This document shows positions 13,356 to 42,929 of a DNA stretch of 42,929 bases, piece by piece. Every line of letters starts with the position of its first letter. Position 1 is the first letter of the stretch. This DNA comes from an uncultured Eubacteriales bacterium (GTDB lineage: Bacteria > Acidobacteriota > Aminicenantia > Aminicenantales > UBA8522). Under the pieces are notes generated by a model, which saw only the letters and a program-made list of their open reading frames with translations, made no database searches and was not told the DNA's origin. The DNA is taken from contig CAZKEW010000002.1 in the NCBI GenBank assembly GCA_964551885.1, positions 1 to 42,929 on the forward strand, in the 5' to 3' direction. The position numbers and the translations under genes are program-made.

Positions 13356-13386
13356 GGGTCTTGTCACGGCGCGTCCCCGTCCGTCC
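13356..13386 (-). repeat. Solo terminal fragment of the MITE-like element
   Basis: GGGTCTTGTCACGGCGCGTCCCCGTCCGTCC matches the GGGTCCTGTCACGG(C/T)GCGTCCCCGTCCG terminus of the elements at 14532..14748 and 32356..32542. The similarity stops after ~31 nt. Confidence 0.6.
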
Positions 13387-13460: not shown

Positions 13461-14492
13461 ATGAGCGAGATTTCCGATTTCCGAAGCGATACTGTAACAA
13501 GACCCACGGAGAAGATGAGAAGGGCGATGGCGGAGGCTGTCGTCGGGGATGATGTCCTTGGAGACGACCCCACCGTTCAAAAGCTCGAAGCCTTGGCCGC
13601 AGAAATTATGGGCAAGGAAGCGGCCCTCTTCGTTCCCTCGGGAACAATGGGGAATTCTGTGGCCGTCAAGGTCTGGACTCGCGAGCTCGATGAGGTGATT
13701 GTCGAGGCGAGGTCGCATATCTACAACATGGAATCGACTCACATGACTTTTATTTCAAGAGTAACACCTCGCCCCCTTCCTTCGAACCGTGGCGTAATGG
13801 ATCCTGCGGAAGTCGAACGGAATATCCGGAAACCCTCTGTCCATATTCCACGGACATCACTCGTCTGTGTGGAAAATACTCACAACAACTGGAGCGGAGC
13901 GGTGGTTCCGATCGAAAACCTAAGGGCTTTGCGGAGAATTGCAGATCAGTATGACGTTAAGCTTCACCTGGACGGAGCGCGCATCTTTAACGCCAGCACG
14001 GCCTCCGGCATACCCGTAAAAGAATATGCCGCTCTTGCCGATTCTTTGATGTTTTGCCTTTCCAAAGGGCTATCGGCTCCTGTGGGATCGATGCTCGTAG
14101 GCCCGCGCAGCTTCATCGACTACGCCAGAAGAGTCCGGAAGGCCTTGGGCGGGGGAATGAGGCAGGTCGGCGTGCTGGCGGCCCCTGGGATTGTCGCTCT
14201 AACGGAAATGGTCGGCCGGCTTCATGAGGACCATGAGAGAGCCAAAAGACTGGCTTCAGCCATAGCGGAGTTACCAGGGATTCAGCTCAATCCCGAGGAA
14301 GTTCAAACCAATATCATTGTCTTTGGGTTTTCCCACCCTAAGTTCTCCGTTGCCGAGTTCCTGGCGGAGCTTCGAAAGAGAAAGATTCTTGCTTTAGCTA
14401 CGACTGGGGGAATCCGCTTCGTCACGCACAAGGACATCGACGATGAGGATGTCGAGCGGGCTATCGCCGCCTTCCAAGAAATTTTGAAGTAA
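13461..14492 (+). CDS. ltaE: Low-specificity L-threonine aldolase (PLP-dependent)
   Basis: 343 aa. The N-terminus DFRSDTVTRPTEKMRRAMAEAVVGDDVLGDDPTV and the motifs GTMGN and LSKGLSAPVGS (PLP lysine context) are typical. Confidence 0.9.
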   Translation: MSEISDFRSDTVTRPTEKMRRAMAEAVVGDDVLGDDPTVQKLEALAAEIMGKEAALFVPSGTMGNSVAVKVWTRELDEVIVEARSHIYNMESTHMTFISRVTPRPLPSNRGVMDPAEVERNIRKPSVHIPRTSLVCVENTHNNWSGAVVPIENLRALRRIADQYDVKLHLDGARIFNASTASGIPVKEYAALADSLMFCLSKGLSAPVGSMLVGPRSFIDYARRVRKALGGGMRQVGVLAAPGIVALTEMVGRLHEDHERAKRLASAIAELPGIQLNPEEVQTNIIVFGFSHPKFSVAEFLAELRKRKILALATTGGIRFVTHKDIDDEDVERAIAAFQEILK

Positions 14493-14531
14493 ACTTCTTA
14501 CCTTTGCTCATTCCGAGCTGCGATTGAAACT

Positions 14532-14748
14532 AAAAAATGGGTGGCACGGCGCGTCCCCGTCCGCCCGCAGCGAATTTCCAGAATAACGGAGACACTCTCA
14601 AAGGCTTTAATTTTATGATATTAATCCCCCCTACCCCCCTTGAGCAATCAAGGGGGGCCATAGGAGCCTGTCGGTGTCTCCGCAATGGTCGGTGGGGGGG
14701 TCTTCAGCGAGGACGGACGGGGACGCGCCGTGACAGGACCCATTTTTT
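14532..14748 (+). mobile_element. MITE-like palindromic element, copy A (core 14539..14741, 203 bp)
   Basis: The terminal inverted repeats are GGGTGGCACGGCGCGTCCCCGTCCG and CGGACGGGGACGCGCCGTGACAGGACCC. The internal pairs are GGAGACAC/GTGTCTCC and a perfect 10-bp hairpin CCCCCCTTGA-GCAA-TCAAGGGGGG. A homologous copy sits in inverse orientation at 32356..32542. No ORF with coding signal is present. Confidence 0.65.
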
Positions 14749-14754
14749 AAAACC

Positions 14755-16773
14755 TTAGCTTTCTAGCGCATCGGCCAACAACTGGGCGATATCTTTTACC
14801 GCAATTTCTGTTTTTTCCCTGTCCTTCAAACCGTCCCTGAGCATGTTCAGGCAAAAAGGACAGGAGGTTGCAGCGACCTTTGCCCCGGAATCGATGACCT
14901 CATCTGTCCGGAGATGATTGATTCGCTGGCCGAGGCTCTCTTCCGTCCACATCAATCCTCCTCCGGCCCCGCAGCAGAAGCTGTGCTCGCGGCTTCGTCC
15001 AAGCTCGGTGAATTTTTCCGGAGAAAGCCGGGCAAGAATTTCCCGCGGCTCTTGGATGATCCCGTTGTGCCGGCCGAGATAGCAGGAGTCATGATAGGTC
15101 AAGTTCGCGGCCAAATTTGCCTTGAGCGGGAGCTTCCCTTCTTTGACCAGGCGGTTGAGGAAGATGACGTGAGGCACGACTTCGATCTTCGCGAGCTCGA
15201 CTCGATCCTTTTCTGAAAGAGAAGGGAGAAGACCAAGCAGCCGGGGGTATTCATTCTTGAAAGTGTTATACCCGTGCGGGCAGAAGGTGATGATTTTTTT
15301 GACGTTATATTGGAGGAAAAGGCCCAGATTTTCTCCGGCCAGCGTTTGAAAAAGATACTCCTGGCCCAGCCGACGGGCTGAATCGCCGCAGCATTTCTCC
15401 TCCGTCCCCAGGATGGCAAAATCGACGCCTGCTTTCTTTAAGAGCGAGACCATGGCCTTGGAGATTTTTATGCCTTCCTCATCAAACGAACCGGCGCATC
15501 CTACCCAAAGGAGGTATTCCGCAGATTTCCGGTCGGCCATCAAAGGCACTTCAAGAGAAGAGGCCCAGTCCGCCCTCTTGGCGAACCCGATTCCCCAGGG
15601 GTTGGCGTTTGTTTCCATATTGCGGAAGAAGGGGTTCAACTCCTGCGGGAATTTACTCTGCATCAAGACTTCGCTCTGCCGGATGCCGATGATCTTGCGG
15701 ATGTGCTCGATCTCCACCGGGCAGACATGCTGGCAGGCTCCGCAAGTCGTGCACGTCCAGATTTCTCCATCGCTATAGACGCCGGGGAGAAGCGAGGTCA
15801 GTTCCTCGCGTTTGCCTTTCAGCAATTTTTGTTTCTCGCCGAGCAGGTGCTTTTTCAGGTTGAAAACAATCATCTTCGGCGAAAGCGGTTTGGAGCTGGT
15901 GAAGGCGGGGCAGGCATCCTGGCAGCGGCCGCATTCCATGCAGGCAAAAGCGTCCATGAAGTCCTTCCAGGTGAGGTCGCTCGCTTTTTCCACGCCAAAG
16001 ATTTCTAATTTTTCTAGATCCAGCGGCTGGATTTCCCCGCTGGATCGCTCCGACCGGAAAAATACGTTCAAAGGCCCGGTGAACATGTGGAGGTACTTGG
16101 AGTAGGGGACATAGGCGATAAACCCAAAGACCAATAGAATATGGAGCCACCAGGAAAAGCGAAGATGGGTGGCGATGGCCTCCGGCCGCAAACCCAGGCT
16201 CTGGATGTTGTTGGCAAGATAGTTTCCCAAGAAGGAAAGGCGGGCGCTCTCGGGATGGCTGGCGATGGCAAAGGCTTCAAAATAGAGATAGCTCAGGGTG
16301 ACCACGATAAGGAAGAAATAGATGAGGCCGGAATCGAGAAGCGTTGTCCGATAAGCCTTTGGCCTGATAATAAACCGGCGGACGATGAAAAAGAGCACTC
16401 CGGCCAGGACAAGAAGGGCAAAGATATCTACGATAAGGGAAAAGAAAAAGCCGAAGTTTGTTTCCCCGAAAAGATAAAATTTATCAATGAACCCTTCCAG
16501 GGTGTGGTTGACCGTCATGGTGTCGAACGTCAGGGCGCCGTAAAATATAAAGACATGCATCAATCCGGTGAAGACCCGCTCATTTTTTAAGGTGCATTTC
16601 TGGAGGAAGACTTTGGCCAGGGTGTCTCCGATTCTTCGGACAACGTCCGCGACACGCATCTCCGGCTTTCCTTTGCGGATAATTCTGTAACGGAGGTAGA
16701 TGGGAAAGGCAAAGGCCAAAAAGGTTGCGAGGATGATGAGAGAAAAAAGAACTTTTTCCCAGGCTGAAAGCAT
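14755..16773 (-). CDS. Membrane-bound Fe-S oxidoreductase: NarI/DsrM-like polytopic N-domain fused to an HdrD/DsrK-like domain (2x[4Fe-4S] + two CCG motifs)
   Basis: 672 aa. The first ~250 aa are about six hydrophobic helices with conserved His. They are followed by CMECGRCQDACP and CTTCGACQHVCP ferredoxin motifs and the CCG-domain signatures KCCGDS and FCCGAGGG. A GGAGGG RBS is present. Confidence 0.8.
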   Translation of the reverse strand: MLSAWEKVLFSLIILATFLAFAFPIYLRYRIIRKGKPEMRVADVVRRIGDTLAKVFLQKCTLKNERVFTGLMHVFIFYGALTFDTMTVNHTLEGFIDKFYLFGETNFGFFFSLIVDIFALLVLAGVLFFIVRRFIIRPKAYRTTLLDSGLIYFFLIVVTLSYLYFEAFAIASHPESARLSFLGNYLANNIQSLGLRPEAIATHLRFSWWLHILLVFGFIAYVPYSKYLHMFTGPLNVFFRSERSSGEIQPLDLEKLEIFGVEKASDLTWKDFMDAFACMECGRCQDACPAFTSSKPLSPKMIVFNLKKHLLGEKQKLLKGKREELTSLLPGVYSDGEIWTCTTCGACQHVCPVEIEHIRKIIGIRQSEVLMQSKFPQELNPFFRNMETNANPWGIGFAKRADWASSLEVPLMADRKSAEYLLWVGCAGSFDEEGIKISKAMVSLLKKAGVDFAILGTEEKCCGDSARRLGQEYLFQTLAGENLGLFLQYNVKKIITFCPHGYNTFKNEYPRLLGLLPSLSEKDRVELAKIEVVPHVIFLNRLVKEGKLPLKANLAANLTYHDSCYLGRHNGIIQEPREILARLSPEKFTELGRSREHSFCCGAGGGLMWTEESLGQRINHLRTDEVIDSGAKVAATSCPFCLNMLRDGLKDREKTEIAVKDIAQLLADALES

Positions 16774-20459: not shown

Positions 20460-20488
20460 GGGGACGGTTCTCGGAGAGAACCGTCCCC
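20460..20488. repeat. REP-like hairpin GGGGACGGTTCTC-GGA-GAGAACCGTCCCC (copy 2 of 3)
   Basis: A perfect 13-bp stem identical to that at 98..126. It lies in the divergent region between the TonB-like gene and lpdA, where no gene ends. Confidence 0.7.
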
Positions 20489-31263: not shown

Positions 31264-32153
31264 TTATCGATAAATTCCGGCTGGGGGATTTTGATATCTA
31301 TGGCCTCACCGATGGGTATTTTTACCTCGACGGCGGGGCCATGTTCGGCGTCGTGCCCAAGACTCTCTGGGAAAAGAAGTGTCCGGCGGACGCAAAGAAC
31401 AGGATTAAGCTCGCCCTCAACTCCATCTTGATCAAGACTCCCCAGACGCTCGTTCTCGTGGAGACGGGCATCGGGACGAAACTCAACCAGAAGTTTCGAG
31501 GGATTTACTGCGTCGAGAAGGATCCTGGTCTTCTGTCTTCTCTTTCCCGCTTAGGTTTTTGCCCCAACGATATCGACTTCGTCATCAATACGCATCTTCA
31601 TTTCGACCATTGCGGAGGCAATACCTTCAGGAATGAAAACGGTGAGGTCGTCCCTACATTTCCCCGCGCCCGCTATATCATCCAGAAGGGCGAGTGGGAA
31701 TGGGCCAAGCAGCCCAACGAAAGAGAAAAATCCAGCTATCTTAGGGAGAATTTTTTGCCGTTAGAGGATTACGGCCTCGTCAACCTTGTTGATGGAGATA
31801 GCCAGGTCACAGAGGGAGTCGAGGCCGTCCTTTCGCCAGGCCATACCCTTTGCCACCAGAGCGTCAAAGTCTCTTCCCAAGGGAAGATGCTCTTCTATCT
31901 GGGAGACTTGGTGCCGACTTCAGCGCACATCAGCCTCTCTTACATCATGAGCTACGACCTCTTTCCGCTGGAGACTCTGGAAAGCAAGAAGAAATTCTAC
32001 GAACAGGCCATAGAGGAAGACTGGGTTTTGGCTTTTGTCCATGACCCTCATTACTATTTCGGAAAGATCGGAAAAAAGAACAACAAGTATGAATTCGTGC
32101 CCCTACTTTCAGGGGACGGTTCTCCGGGAGAGCCGTCCCCATTAAGCATTTGA
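31260..32153 (+). CDS. MBL-fold metallo-hydrolase (AiiA/lactonase-like HLHFDHCGG family)
   Basis: 297 aa with the HxHxDH motif THLHFDHCGGN, a downstream SPGHT, and GD/HD ligand contexts. Its ATG overlaps the nuoI stop (ATGA). The last ~14 codons are read through a REP-like hairpin. Confidence 0.85.
   Translation: MIIDKFRLGDFDIYGLTDGYFYLDGGAMFGVVPKTLWEKKCPADAKNRIKLALNSILIKTPQTLVLVETGIGTKLNQKFRGIYCVEKDPGLLSSLSRLGFCPNDIDFVINTHLHFDHCGGNTFRNENGEVVPTFPRARYIIQKGEWEWAKQPNEREKSSYLRENFLPLEDYGLVNLVDGDSQVTEGVEAVLSPGHTLCHQSVKVSSQGKMLFYLGDLVPTSAHISLSYIMSYDLFPLETLESKKKFYEQAIEEDWVLAFVHDPHYYFGKIGKKNNKYEFVPLLSGDGSPGEPSPLSI
32112..32140. repeat. REP-like hairpin GGGGACGGTTCTC-CGG-GAGAGCCGTCCCC (copy 3 of 3), inside the 3' end of the MBL gene
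   Basis: It has the same stem as 98..126 and 20460..20488 with one A>G change that gives a T.G pair. It is translated as ...GDGSPGEPSP.... Confidence 0.7.
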
Positions 32154-32355
32154 CGATCGGCGTATATGCCCGCGGCTTGCTGCGGGGAACCGATCGTCGG
32201 GAGATCCAAGGGGGTATGACCCCTTGGTCGTAGGGCGTGGGTCCATGCCCCGCCCGAGAAGGGGAGGCGGGGAGCGAAGCGACCGATGGAAGGGGGAAAG
32301 CGAAGCTGTTCCCCGGAAGCATCCTATTTTCCGTGATAGTCAGAGAAATCTTTTT

Positions 32356-32542
32356 GAGCACGGGTCCTGTCACGGTGCGTCCCCGTCCGACCTTTCCGGA
32401 GACACTAACCGACTTTGAGGCCCCCCTTGATTGCTCAAGGGGGGTAGGGGGAATTAATACCGTAAAATCAAAGTCTTTGATAGTGTCTCCGCGGTTTGTT
32501 CGCTGCGGGCGGGCGGGGACTATCGCCGTGCCACCCGTGCTC
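32356..32542 (-). mobile_element. MITE-like palindromic element, copy B (core 32362..32536, 175 bp), inverted relative to copy A
   Basis: The reverse complement of copy A aligns end to end. Shared blocks are GGGTCCTGTCACGG.GCGTCCCCGTCCG, GGAGACAC, CCCCCCTTGATTGCTCAAGGGGGGTAGGGG, GTGTCTCCG and TCGCTGCGGGCGG.CGGGGAC...GCCGTGCCACCC. Copy B lacks about 28 nt that copy A has. Confidence 0.65.
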
Positions 32543-32581
32543 ATCAAGGAATTTGGGATGCTACCCTGTTCTCCCTCCAAG

Positions 32582-32609
32582 TTGACTTTGCCCCAAAATA
32601 AAATATAAT
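32582..32609 (+). promoter_or_regulatory. Near-consensus sigma70 promoter TTGACT-16-TATAAT for the malic enzyme gene
   Basis: The -35 is at 32582..32587 and the -10 at 32604..32609. An AAGGAGG RBS at 32627..32633 precedes the ATG at 32642. Confidence 0.55.
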
Positions 32610-40974: not shown

Positions 40975-41817
40975 ATGTACGACGAGGATTTCCTCGATTC
41001 GAAAAATCTAAAGATCTATCTCAACCAGATCTCCAAATTCCCTATGTATTCAGAAGAAGAAGAAAAGGAGCTTGGCCGGCTGATTCAGCAGGGAGACAAG
41101 AACGCCATCAAAAAGTTTGTCGAAGCAAACCTCCGATTTGTCGTCTCATATGTCAAAAAGTACCGGGGGATGGGCCTGACCATGCTTGACCTCATCAACG
41201 AGGGTAACCTGGGTTTGATCGAGGCTGCCAAACGGTACGACCCCAACCGCAATGTCAGGTTCATCTCTTATGCCGTCTGGTGGATCAGGCAGGCGGTCAT
41301 CCATGCCCTGACCCAGTCCGCCCGCATCTACAACCTTCCGCAGAAGATGTCCGACCAGATCTCGCAGATGAAGAGGAAAGTCTCCCAGCTCAAGGCAGAA
41401 CTCGGCAGAGAGCCGACGAGGGAGGAGACCGCCCGGAGCATGGGGATCAGCGAAGAGGATGTCGAGGACCTGCAAATCTTGGCCGAGAAGGATGTCTCTC
41501 TCAGTGACAGGCTGACGGACAGCGAGCTTGAGGTCGAGGGAAAGATTGAAGACAATGCTTCGCCTTCGGTCGAATACCAGATCGTCAAGTCCTCCATCCA
41601 GCATCAGATCAGGGATATTTTAGGGGAGCTGGATGAGAAAGCGGCTCTTGTGCTAAAATTAAGGTTCGGGCTGGATGATGACCGGCCGCAGACCCTTCAA
41701 GAGATAGGGAAGAGGCTGAATTTGACGAGGGAGCGAATCCGGCAGATTGAGCAGAAAGCCATGAGGAAGCTCGCCCGGTCTCATAATCTCCAGCAGCTTA
41801 GAGGTTATTTGAACTGA
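40975..41817 (+). CDS. Sigma-70 family sigma factor, compact RpoD/RpoS-like (regions 1.2-4.2, no region 1.1)
   Basis: 280 aa with region 2 (LRFVVSYVKKYRGMGLTMLDLINEGNLGLIEAAKRYDP...FISYAVWWIRQAV), region 3 and region 4.2 (TLQEIGKRLNLTRERIRQIEQKAMRKL). No RpoH box is present. Confidence 0.9.
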   Translation: MYDEDFLDSKNLKIYLNQISKFPMYSEEEEKELGRLIQQGDKNAIKKFVEANLRFVVSYVKKYRGMGLTMLDLINEGNLGLIEAAKRYDPNRNVRFISYAVWWIRQAVIHALTQSARIYNLPQKMSDQISQMKRKVSQLKAELGREPTREETARSMGISEEDVEDLQILAEKDVSLSDRLTDSELEVEGKIEDNASPSVEYQIVKSSIQHQIRDILGELDEKAALVLKLRFGLDDDRPQTLQEIGKRLNLTRERIRQIEQKAMRKLARSHNLQQLRGYLN

Positions 41818-42560
41818 TGGCCGAGAAAATTTGCCCCAAATGCGAAGGCACAGGCTGGGTCCTTGAGGAGACGGACGGAAAGTCCCTCGCCAAGCGCTGT
41901 GATTGTTTTTATGAGCGCAAGACCCAGGCTCTCTGGGATCAGGCCCGCATTCCCCGGAGATATCAGAACTGTTCGCTCAAAAGTTTTGAAGTCCACAACG
42001 ATTCCCACCGCGATGCCCTGAAGATCTCCAAGCAGTTCGTCAAAAATTACCCGGCCCAGGAAGTCGGCCTTCTTTTTATCGGGCCCTGCGGGGTAGGGAA
42101 GACGCACCTGGCTGTGGCCATCATCAAAGAATTGATCGAGAAAAAGAATGTTCCCTGCTCTTTTTACGATTTCAGGGAGCTCATCCGGGATATCCAGAGC
42201 ACCTTCACTCCTGATTCGAATCTCACGGAATCCGATGTCCTCGCCCCTGTGTTTGAGCATGAGGTCCTTGTGCTCGATGAGCTTGGAGCCAAACGGACGA
42301 CGGCCTGGGTCGAAGAGACCGTTTTCTATATCATCAATCAGCGCTACAACCAGAAGAAATTGACCCTCTTTACGTCAAACTACTTGGACACCGAAGAGGA
42401 AGAAGACACCCGCGACTCCTTCTACAAGAAAAGCGGAGATACGCTTGTGGACCGGATCGGCGTGCGGCTTAGGTCCAGGCTCTATGAGATGTGCAAGATC
42501 GTCGAGATGTGGGGGGACGACTACCGCAAGATGGCCAAGCAAGCCAGCTACCGGTTTTAA
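41817..42560 (+). CDS. DnaC/DnaI-like AAA+ helicase-loader-type ATPase with an N-terminal Cys-rich zinc motif
   Basis: 247 aa with an N-terminal CPKCEGTG...CDC, Walker A (GPCGVGKTHLAVA), Walker B (VLVLDELG) and the DnaC/IstB-like TLFTSN. Its start overlaps the sigma gene stop (TGATG). Confidence 0.8.
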   Translation: MAEKICPKCEGTGWVLEETDGKSLAKRCDCFYERKTQALWDQARIPRRYQNCSLKSFEVHNDSHRDALKISKQFVKNYPAQEVGLLFIGPCGVGKTHLAVAIIKELIEKKNVPCSFYDFRELIRDIQSTFTPDSNLTESDVLAPVFEHEVLVLDELGAKRTTAWVEETVFYIINQRYNQKKLTLFTSNYLDTEEEEDTRDSFYKKSGDTLVDRIGVRLRSRLYEMCKIVEMWGDDYRKMAKQASYRF

Positions 42561-42644: not shown

Positions 42645-42679
42645 TCCTCGGTAGCTCAATCGGCAGAGCGGGTGGCTGT
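42645..42679 (+). tRNA. tRNA-Asn(GUU) 5' exon (positions 1-35); 3' exon lies beyond the window
   Basis: TCCTCGG-TA-GCTC-AATCGGCA-GAGC-G-GGTGG-CT-GT gives an acceptor 5' strand, U8, a D-arm with G18G19, an anticodon-stem 5' strand, C32 U33 and G34 U35. The U1 and UCCUC start and the overall sequence parallel E. coli tRNA-Asn (UCCUCUGUAGUUCAGUCGGUAGAACGGCGGACUGUUAA...). The third anticodon base is not visible. Confidence 0.8.
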
Positions 42680-42929
42680 ATAAATGCAGCTTCCACGAGA
42701 AATCGTGGCTGAAAAATCGGGTGAATTCAGGGAAGCCTGCCTTCTGCATCAGGCGGAAAATGGTAACCCTGAGCCAAGCCCTGGCCGGATCAAAATGGTC
42801 AGGGAAGGTGCAGAGACTAGAGCTTATGCTCGTACCCTGAAGAAATTTCAGGGGAAGCGCCCGACACCCCACCTCCAGGTTTCTGGAGCGGGTGAAGAGA
42901 TAGTCCAAGCCCAGAAGAAATTTTGGGGC
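42680..42929 (+). ncRNA. Group I self-splicing intron (IC3-like), truncated by the window end
   Basis: P1 forms as exon GGCUGU / guide GCAGCU (42686..42691), with a U.G pair at the splice site. P2 is CCACGA-GAAA-TCGTGG (42693..42708). The core strings are TCAGGGAAGCC (42727..), CCCTGAGCCAAGCC (42767..42780), GAAGGTGCAGAGACTA (42804..42819) and GGTGAAGAGATAGTCCAAG (42891..42909). These closely match the Anabaena tRNA-Leu intron strings CUCAGGGAAACC, CCUGAGCCAAGCC, GGAAGGUGCAGAGACU and GGGUAAAGAGAGAGUCCAAU. Confidence 0.85.

Follow-up and report, generated by a model that had tools for sequence, protein, structure and literature searches.

The window considered here, i.e. the whole stretch of 42,929 nucleotides that was analysed (contig CAZKEW010000002.1), has a housekeeping content (H+-pyrophosphatase, enolase, RecN-like and BamD-like proteins, an NADH dehydrogenase operon, malic enzyme, DnaK/DnaJ and a sigma factor). 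Within it, a pyridoxal phosphate-dependent threonine-aldolase-type gene (13461-14492, plus strand) and a CCG/4Fe-4S oxidoreductase gene (14755-16773, minus strand; an exact-sequence look-up of its protein returned no record) converge on a spacer of 262 bp, in which lies a 203-bp imperfect palindrome, designated copy A. The original prediction described it as an element resembling MITEs (miniature inverted-repeat transposable elements), and all its statements on the sequence were confirmed: the long imperfect palindrome taking up most of the spacer, the termini GGGTGGCACGGCGCGTCCCCGTCCG (14539-14563) and CGGACGGGGACGCGCCGTGACAGGACCC (14714-14741), the nested arms and the internal hairpin. The terminal arms, as delimited by a repeat finder, are 25 nt long and 92% complementary. 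The AAAAAAT and ATTTTTT said to bracket the element are also present and extend the pairing of the arms, the flanks forming with GGGT/ACCC a perfect 12-bp inverted repeat (12/12 complementary); since they are an inverted and not a direct repeat, they do not represent a target-site duplication. The predicted folding energies are −124 kcal/mol for the plus strand and −121 for the minus strand (z-scores, −10.5 and −8.6), values equalled by none of 200 shuffled sequences. Only chance open reading frames (ORFs) of at most 73 amino acids cover the palindrome; the 73-residue ORF that can be read through copy A (14537-14758) is a by-product of the palindrome and not a gene, as are the 56-residue ORFs that public gene calls place over its decayed counterparts in two relatives (L141, 5075-5245; L143, 4046-4216; the L-numbers indicate the related loci, approximately 150 in all, that were compared with the window).

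Copy A is not alone. A second copy (copy B) had been placed, inverted, at 32356..32542; its inverted orientation was confirmed, its extent was corrected to 32362-32536, and it was found to be part of a larger unit of 251 bp. The two copies are 79% identical overall and 92% identical over a 73-nt core, and copy B also folds strongly (z-scores, −8.4 and −9.3). The solitary end reported at 13356..13386 was found as described, 8 nt before a promoter-like TTGCCG-17-TATAAT site upstream of the aldolase gene; when tested as a small hairpin it showed no folding (z-score, +1.3). Four occurrences of the 12-mer CGTCCCCGTCCG in the window compare with an expectation of 0.12, and a search of the window with a profile of the family revealed no copy beyond those already known. 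Thus, two copies and one fragment are found in 43 kb, and at least four contigs of the metagenome-assembled genome (MAG) UBA8522 carry the family. The proposal of a dispersed, non-coding and non-autonomous repeat family, rather than a local terminator, is upheld by copies in several Aminicenantes genomes and in many metagenome contigs.

Evidence of mobility was obtained at the site of copy B. The malic enzyme of the window is encoded in identical form by seven Logan assemblies, and the occurrence of occupied and empty sites, named beforehand as the test of a mobile element, could be shown by comparing them: the site is occupied in the window and in the conspecific contigs L148 and L149, both of which start inside the element, and the empty junction is found in the conspecific contigs L147, L150, L152 and L153 (three occupied and four empty assemblies); L151 starts exactly at the junction, so that its occupancy is ambiguous. 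The site is also empty in a 94% relative (L154), where the spacer is only 56 bp long. L147 and the window align perfectly on both sides of a gap of 286 bp that includes copy B. The unit so delimited is not the palindrome of about 200 bp that had been taken as the moving entity; it is a 251-bp element with additional outer inverted repeats (designated T4; 32315-32337 and 32543-32565, 18 of 23 positions matching), flanked by a target-site duplication of 9 bp. The two copies of this duplication are identical at eight of nine positions, and the empty allele has only one CTGTTCTCC. The other 26 bp by which L147 and the window differ are present, within an inverted block, in a 93% relative (L156) and are therefore ancestral, so that the window allele needs one insertion and the empty allele one deletion of 26 bp. 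The right copy of the duplication lies 8 bp upstream of a promoter-like site of the malic enzyme gene (TTGACT-16-TATAAT, 32582-32609). Elements in L008, L033 (where the repeats are approximately 55 bp long) and L156 are delimited by the same outer repeats, and in L008 a perfect 8-9-bp duplication, GGTTCCGG(G), is found on both sides. Target-site duplications were thus found at the unit containing copy B and in L008, and none at copy A. Independent short-read assemblies of this species are interrupted within copy A, and likewise within copy B or at its edge.

Copy A tells of older events. It is found at the same site in the conspecific contigs L001 and L002, both of which break inside it, and three relatives with a 94% identical aldolase (L141, L143 and L144) carry the same insertion after the same CTAAAAAAT. 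These relatives have lost the core hairpin by deletion, their M stem (see below) is disrupted and their right end has degenerated. In a 91% relative (L145) the element is missing from a spacer of 88 bp; at L145 3170-3215, the position corresponding to copy A, a 44-bp palindrome (CTAAGCAGATCATGAT/ATCACGAAAACGAAGATGCTGGCTTAG) resembles two ends of the outer shell joined together. Because copy A is shared with the 94% relatives but has decayed there, and lacks both an outer shell and a direct repeat, it is an old, fixed relic, which has not been kept intact in sister lineages. The solitary end is equally old, being present in L141-L143 as well as in L001 and L002.

On the aligned sequences, the element is a member of a nested (‘Russian-doll’) repeat family of Candidatus Aminicenantes, in which three inverted-repeat shells surround an asymmetric conserved core. 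The core consists, in order, of a box TTsAAGAmTyT, 11-12 nt, ATTAAT, C5-6, 2-3 nt, a hairpin and AAAGGYCGG; the hairpin is made of C5-6 with three to four variable pairs, a loop RNCAAT and G5-6. In 49 aligned units ATTAA and the C-runs show little or no variation, and the hairpin stem covaries (TTGA/TCAA, TTA/TAA, TGA/TCA, CTA/TAG) around a loop that keeps CAAT. The GCAA cap noted on the hairpin of copy A is indeed present there; it is the RNCAAT loop, and not a GNRA-type one, that is conserved in the family. The innermost shell (M) is a stem of 9-11 bp, typically CCGGAGACRC/GYGTCTCCGG. It is followed by the O shell, with arms GGGTGGCAYGGCG... / ...CGCCRTGACAGGACCC and left and right ends that are consistently distinguishable, and by the outer T4 shell, imperfect terminal inverted repeats of approximately 23 bp with the consensus GGMAGCWTC-N3-5-TTTCCGTGAT. 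Inner layers are found without the outer ones, as bare cores (e.g. L013, L025) or M units (e.g. L012, L014, L022). The O shell is combined with an M unit in copy A, L003 and L017 and occurs without one in L058, and all layers are present in copy B, L008 and L033 (table 1). The bases just outside GGGT...ACCC are mutually complementary and specific for each copy (10/10 in L093, 7/7 in copy B), and the flanks of the relatives tend to be rich in purines on the left and in pyrimidines on the right. Units often occur in tandem, head-to-tail, with a period of 70-160 bp. A suspected CRISPR array, suggested by a spacing of 74-151 bp between core hairpins (L013, L019, L006), was discarded, each array having only two to three units and the ‘spacers’ containing the family box and stems.

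Table 1. Coordinates of the repeat family in the window.
Feature	Position	Strand	Description
Copy A	14539-14741	+	203-bp imperfect palindrome; O shell, M shell and core; without outer T4 shell and without target duplication
Left flank of copy A	14531-14538		TAAAAAAT; complementary to 14742-14749; U-run for minus-strand transcripts
O-shell left arm of copy A	14539-14574	+	GGGTGGCACGGCGCGTCCCCGTCCGCCCGCAGCGAA; tract of approx. 12 nt converted to the right-arm version
M-shell 5' arm of copy A	14587-14595	+	CGGAGACAC; perfect match to the 3' arm
Core 5' part of copy A	14598-14633	+	TCAAAGGCTTT box, 11 nt, ATTAAT (14620-14625), CCCCCC, TA
Core hairpin of copy A	14634-14657	+	CCCCCCTTGA-GCAA-TCAAGGGGGG; perfect 10 bp, off-centre
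M-shell 3' arm of copy A	14674-14682	+	GTGTCTCCG
O-shell right arm of copy A	14683-14741	+	includes a small hairpin GTCTTCAGCGAGGAC and the terminus CGGACGGGGACGCGCCGTGACAGGACCC
Right flank of copy A	14742-14749		ATTTTTTA; U-run for plus-strand transcripts; no direct repeat of the left flank
Solo O-shell end	13356-13386	+	31 nt; right-end type, inverted, no partner arm
Left target-site duplication copy	32306-32314		9 bp, CTGTTCCCC
Complete mobile unit	32315-32565		251 bp, contains copy B; T4 ends GGAAGCATCCTATTTTCCGTGAT (from 32315) and GGTAGCATCCCAAATTCCTTGAT (reverse complement, ending 32565)
Copy B	32362-32536	-	O shell, M shell and core; 175 bp; short right arm
Right target-site duplication copy	32566-32574		9 bp, CTGTTCTCC

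With regard to the distribution of the family, full-length homologues were found in three Aminicenantes MAG contigs (L003, L008, L017) and core-bearing units in many more. A pattern scan of metagenome contigs, in which the hairpin stem was left free, yielded at least 120 loci, and the counts given for the family rest on the matches listed. Among these, approximately 31 loci were set aside as unrelated perfect nested palindromes (ATTAATC6-N3-C6TTTAGTAAAG6-N3-G6ATT); this unrelated family (e.g. L026 1069-1120, L031, L064, L139) shares with the core a start made of ATTAAT and a C-run. Identical 22-nt hairpins in contigs of Clostridium, Sphingobacterium and Flavobacteriales are ordinary terminators between A and T runs and were rejected as chance matches. 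An exact-pattern scan for the core hairpin in one genome per species returned mostly Aminicenantes MAGs, and the named homologues of the proteins flanking copy A belong to Candidatus Aminicenantes/Aminicenantales (81-85% identity). Some of the hairpin matches are labelled ‘uncultured Eubacteriales’ and close homologues of the aldolase also bear Clostridiales labels, which are probably not reliable on these records.

The complementarity of the arms was analysed in a set of 49 M units, chosen for at least 7 bp of inverted repeat; a stem of this kind is found at the right place in approximately 55 of 84 core-bearing units, against the few per cent expected by chance. Across the set the two helices are 96% paired and 12 of the 19 pairs change on both sides, a result to which none of 500 shuffles and no slid register came close; within the M helix alone, compensatory changes are observed in 10 of 11 pairs. 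However, the changes in the stems comprise 81 double ones and only seven one-sided ones that keep the pair, and G·U/U·G combinations are as frequent as A·C/C·A (9 and 11, respectively, in 919 cells). A further indication comes from the left arm of copy A. Three clustered positions there distinguish the window from L001, the 94% relative L141 and copy B, and each of the changes matches the reverse complement of the right arm as well as the solitary end located 1.2 kb away. By this pattern of matches, the tract of approximately 12 nt is a conversion tract, copied from arm to arm. Since one-sided changes are rare, G·U equals A·C and a conversion tract is found, the constraint on the arms would act at the DNA level: their complementarity would be kept by arm-to-arm conversion and not by selection on an RNA fold.

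Taken together, we consider it probable that copy A belongs to a non-coding, non-autonomous family of nested palindromes of the MITE type, with arms maintained at the DNA level, and that it is an old, fixed relic of this family. The MITE features found comprise a small size (203, 175 and 251 bp, well below a limit of about 600 bp), no coding capacity, terminal inverted repeats, a target-site duplication and an insertion polymorphism, shown for the unit containing copy B and, by homology, for the family. In its full form the family would thus be a MITE of 250-310 bp, with the T4 shell outermost, which would insert with an 8-9-bp target-site duplication. Duplications of 8-9 bp are what DDE transposases produce, so that the length of the duplication, the sole basis for this step, would imply a DDE-type transposase supplied in trans.

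The absence of a transposase from the window, as originally predicted, was confirmed. A match to IstB_IS21 (60 bits) at 41817-42560 on the plus strand was rejected: it has no adjacent IstA-like gene and is found in the same position, after the sigma-factor gene, in the 93% relative L156, so that it is a host AAA+ gene and not part of an insertion sequence. No transposase was seen in the vicinity of over 60 units; when 199 neighbouring ORFs were compared with one another by BLAST, no family recurred beside the units, and in a Pfam scan of 110 neighbours no family was found more than twice and no transposase was among the 25 families listed. A scan of viral contigs for O-shell ends gave 0 matches.

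Several observations weigh against this assignment. The window, 1.1 Mb of loci and viral contigs yielded no autonomous element with matching ends. A duplication is present in only two of the five elements with an outer shell, being absent from L033, L145 and L156. Both the outer repeats and a duplication are missing from copy A, and the flanks of L145 are too diverged to provide a clean empty site. The choice of units by their inverted repeat is a caveat to the covariation analysis. The U-runs that adjoin copy A are absent from copy B (flanks GUGCUCAUCAAGG and GUGCUCAAAAAG) and from most relatives, which weakens the termination step considered below. Finally, the core is better conserved than any of the terminal repeats and also occurs without shells and in tandem arrays, and in 12 cases a tRNA gene (Ser, Val, Asp, SeC) converges on a unit, its 3' end being 26-35 nt away. 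Such conservation and fixed placement are unusual for the cargo of a MITE and hint at a host function.

Among the alternatives, that of a host terminator survives best. It takes copy A as primarily a bidirectional intrinsic terminator and the likeness among copies as a shared terminator design and not as a sign of mobility. The base of the stem (GGGUGGCACGG.../...CCGUGACAGGACCC) is followed by AUUUUUU on both strands, so that copy A shares with intrinsic terminators a GC-rich stem base, flanking A- and T-runs and a position between convergent genes. The purine-rich left and pyrimidine-rich right flanks of the relatives also speak for this proposal. Few canonical short terminators are found in the window, where the 36 and 35 pattern matches, mostly inside genes, hardly exceed the 27 and 28 of shuffled sequences; the sole strong match (98-126) is the hairpin of another repeat family, and repeat hairpins may well serve as transcript ends in this organism. 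Stems as long as that of copy A are invisible to the terminator scan. However, the branched stem-loop of approximately 200 nt differs from the usual hairpin of about 10-20 bp and belongs to a repeat family. In the 94% relatives its ortholog has lost the core hairpin and much of the pairing without being replaced, and the 91% relative has no such hairpin. Copy B, moreover, has no U-run in its flanks, and four conspecific strains do without it. We therefore regard termination as the primary role of copy A as rather unlikely. The terminator proposal and the assignment to a mobile family overlap, because an ancient insertion may at the same time work as a terminator, and they compete only in how they account for the copy being there: in copy A the GC-rich stem base between A7 and T7 would stop or stabilize transcripts from both convergent genes, and termination as a by-product, limited to copy A, is plausible on its sequence, if still short of an even chance.

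The conserved core raises the question of its own role. The tRNA-linked units (M units in L022, L030, L058, L069, L086, L090, L098, L111, L112 and L117, and also L006) have a constant orientation, with the first base of their reverse complement 5-8 nt after CCA, and some form tandems; their stems differ between organisms yet remain complementary. Four or five bare cores are instead found in sense orientation 23-45 nt upstream of a Shine-Dalgarno sequence and a start codon, in front of different genes (L013, L023, L025, L126). It is conceivable, albeit improbable, that the core is a host-relevant cis-element (a hairpin recognized by a protein as a single strand, an origin-like site, a non-canonical element of tRNA 3'-ends or a portable promoter), the shells deriving from palindromes that inserted into the apex of others or were snap-back-copied from it. 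Such a history would explain the Russian-doll build, the copy-specific complementary bases outside GGGT...ACCC and the fixed placement after tRNA genes.

Slightly less credible is the more specific proposal that the core is a portable promoter with a stabilizing 5' hairpin, carried by the shells, with a −35-like TTsAAG, 16 nt, ATTAAT, a C-rich discriminator and a purine start. The fixed spacing between the box and ATTAAT, the purine usually present between the C-runs 7-9 nt after ATTAAT and the bare modules upstream of ribosome-binding sites would fit it. Nonetheless, ATTAAT lacks the A at position 2 required by the consensus scan, the promoter-like sites of this genome are canonical (those upstream of the malic enzyme and aldolase genes), and the orientation of units relative to downstream genes is not enriched; moreover, the 12 tRNA-linked units point into the 3' end of a convergent gene, and copy A would fire antisense into the oxidoreductase gene. 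As a general reading of the core, a sigma-70 promoter is unsupported by the orientation statistics.

According to a further proposal, the whole element, or else the part made of M shell and core, would be a structured non-coding or cis-regulatory RNA, the palindrome reflecting a selected fold. The very stable predicted folds, the compensatory changes in 12 of 19 pairs that no shuffle matched, the asymmetric conserved blocks with a conserved loop, and the persistence of the unit at tRNA-Ser 3' flanks of different organisms, with different yet complementary stems, agree with it. So does the R-T position that closes the hairpin, where G·T is found in 21 of the 49 units and on a single strand; this position is ambiguous and is read here as part of a six-base loop. 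Against an RNA stand the equal frequency of G·U and A·C and the rarity of one-sided changes, along with the restoration of complementarity by a DNA conversion tract between alleles. Units show no orientation preference relative to protein-coding genes; copies decay, are polymorphic for insertion with a target duplication, and occur as two copies and a fragment within 43 kb. Rfam 15 has no match to the element at the gathering score in the window, nor any at E<=10 in 14450-14800. A selected RNA fold thus appears very unlikely.

Equally hard to sustain is a system like that of the repetitive extragenic palindromes (REPs) and BIMEs, in which a tyrosine transposase (HUH, RAYT/TIRYT-type) would recognize the hairpins as single-stranded DNA and spread them. 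The resemblances are real: the palindromic modules are single, dimeric or clustered and mostly intergenic, within one genome the stems are specific to the family, no direct repeat flanks the O shell, and both repeat families of the window contain GGGGACG, which is close to the GGGGWSAS motif. However, the unit that moved is bounded by an 8-9-bp target duplication, and IS200/IS605-type enzymes are not known to make any. There is neither a GTAG nor a terminal CGTC tag, CGTC being inside the arms and the termini being GGGT.../GGAAGC..., and the units are of 100-250 bp and not of 20-40 bp. A search of 1.1 Mb of loci with an IS200 TnpA sequence and an HUH-Y motif gave no match and no Y1-type ORF, although the search was crude and the test weak; nor does any family recur beside the units. 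Comparison with REP/BIME/REPIN systems and their RAYT, including the CGTC-tagged REPs and the terminal inverted repeat families (Di Nocera et al. 2013, PMC3733652), likewise reveals modular palindromes that are single, paired or clustered, intergenic and often located after genes, with genome-specific stems and a proposed role in termination or mRNA stability. In that work the GGGGWSAS motif was described in inverted repeats flanking tyrosine transposase genes, including a distinct group in Acidobacteria (PMC3733652). The units described here differ in being 3-8 times longer, without a GTAG tag and without a linked tyrosine transposase in the loci, in the duplication bounding the moved unit, and in tandem arrays that are head-to-tail instead of head-to-head.

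Returning to the assignment as a MITE-type family, closer parallels are offered by the Correia/NEMIS elements of Neisseria, by MITEAba12 and by ERIC/IRU, which are likewise small, non-coding and intergenic, with terminal inverted repeats, a short duplication and strain polymorphism; they, too, may fold over their whole length into a long hairpin, and their copies may carry promoter- or terminator-like signals. No sequence similarity to a named family was found in Rfam or in the literature searched, and the present family is distinguished by three concentric shells, each also occurring without the outer ones, and by a core more conserved than the termini. The duplication is of 8-9 bp instead of the TA of Correia, and no partner insertion sequence was found in the loci. 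The BOX elements of Streptococcus pneumoniae (boxA-boxB(n)-boxC) are also modular, with conserved outer modules and a repeatable inner one, non-coding and strongly folding, and their mobilizing enzyme is likewise unidentified; there is no sequence relation, and nested palindromes with terminal repeats and a duplication contrast with a linear A-B-C arrangement. No description of the family was found in the searched literature on MITEs or palindromic repeats of Aminicenantes or Acidobacteria. Thus, the family appears previously undescribed, with precedents for modular, nested or palindromic small repeats in BOX, BIME, ERIC and Correia.

Other repeats are also present in the window. A second family of hairpins, GGGGACGGTTCTC-N3-4-GAGAACCGTCCCC with a 13-bp stem, occurs at 98-126, following the H+-pyrophosphatase gene, at 20460-20488 and at 32112-32140, the last copy being inside the 3' end of a metallo-beta-lactamase-fold gene and conserved in the 94% relative L154; it is this family that shares GGGGACG with the arms of the O shell. 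The spacer that separates the latter gene from the malic enzyme gene (32147-32305) is a hot spot: it contains a block of approximately 146 bp of other palindromes (GACGATCGG...CCGATCGTC, CCAAGGGG..CCCCTTGG, CCCCGCC..GGCGGGG), which is present in the window and its conspecifics and absent from L154, and in L156 the homologous segment is inverted inside a stretch of approximately 400 bp bounded by inverted repeats similar to those of the outer shell. At the end of the window a complete group I intron is found (42670-42927, plus strand; Rfam RF00028, 86 bits, E 9e-21), preceded by the 5' half of a tRNA-like sequence (...GGTAGCTCAATCGGCAGAGC...) from approximately 42645; ARAGORN called no tRNA there, which is presumably explained by a 3' exon located outside the window.

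In an uncultured lineage that is widespread in sediments and groundwater, the family interrupts short-read assemblies and provokes spurious gene calls, and a model of it would improve Aminicenantes MAGs. The site of copy B, with its precisely defined empty state, also documents cleanly, at the level of a population, a recent transposition in an uncultured phylum. The example of arm-to-arm conversion indicates that ‘compensatory’ changes in long palindromes need not mean selection on RNA, which calls for caution in covariation-based RNA discovery. If it were true that the core has a host function, it would represent a new class of cis-element for the phylum.

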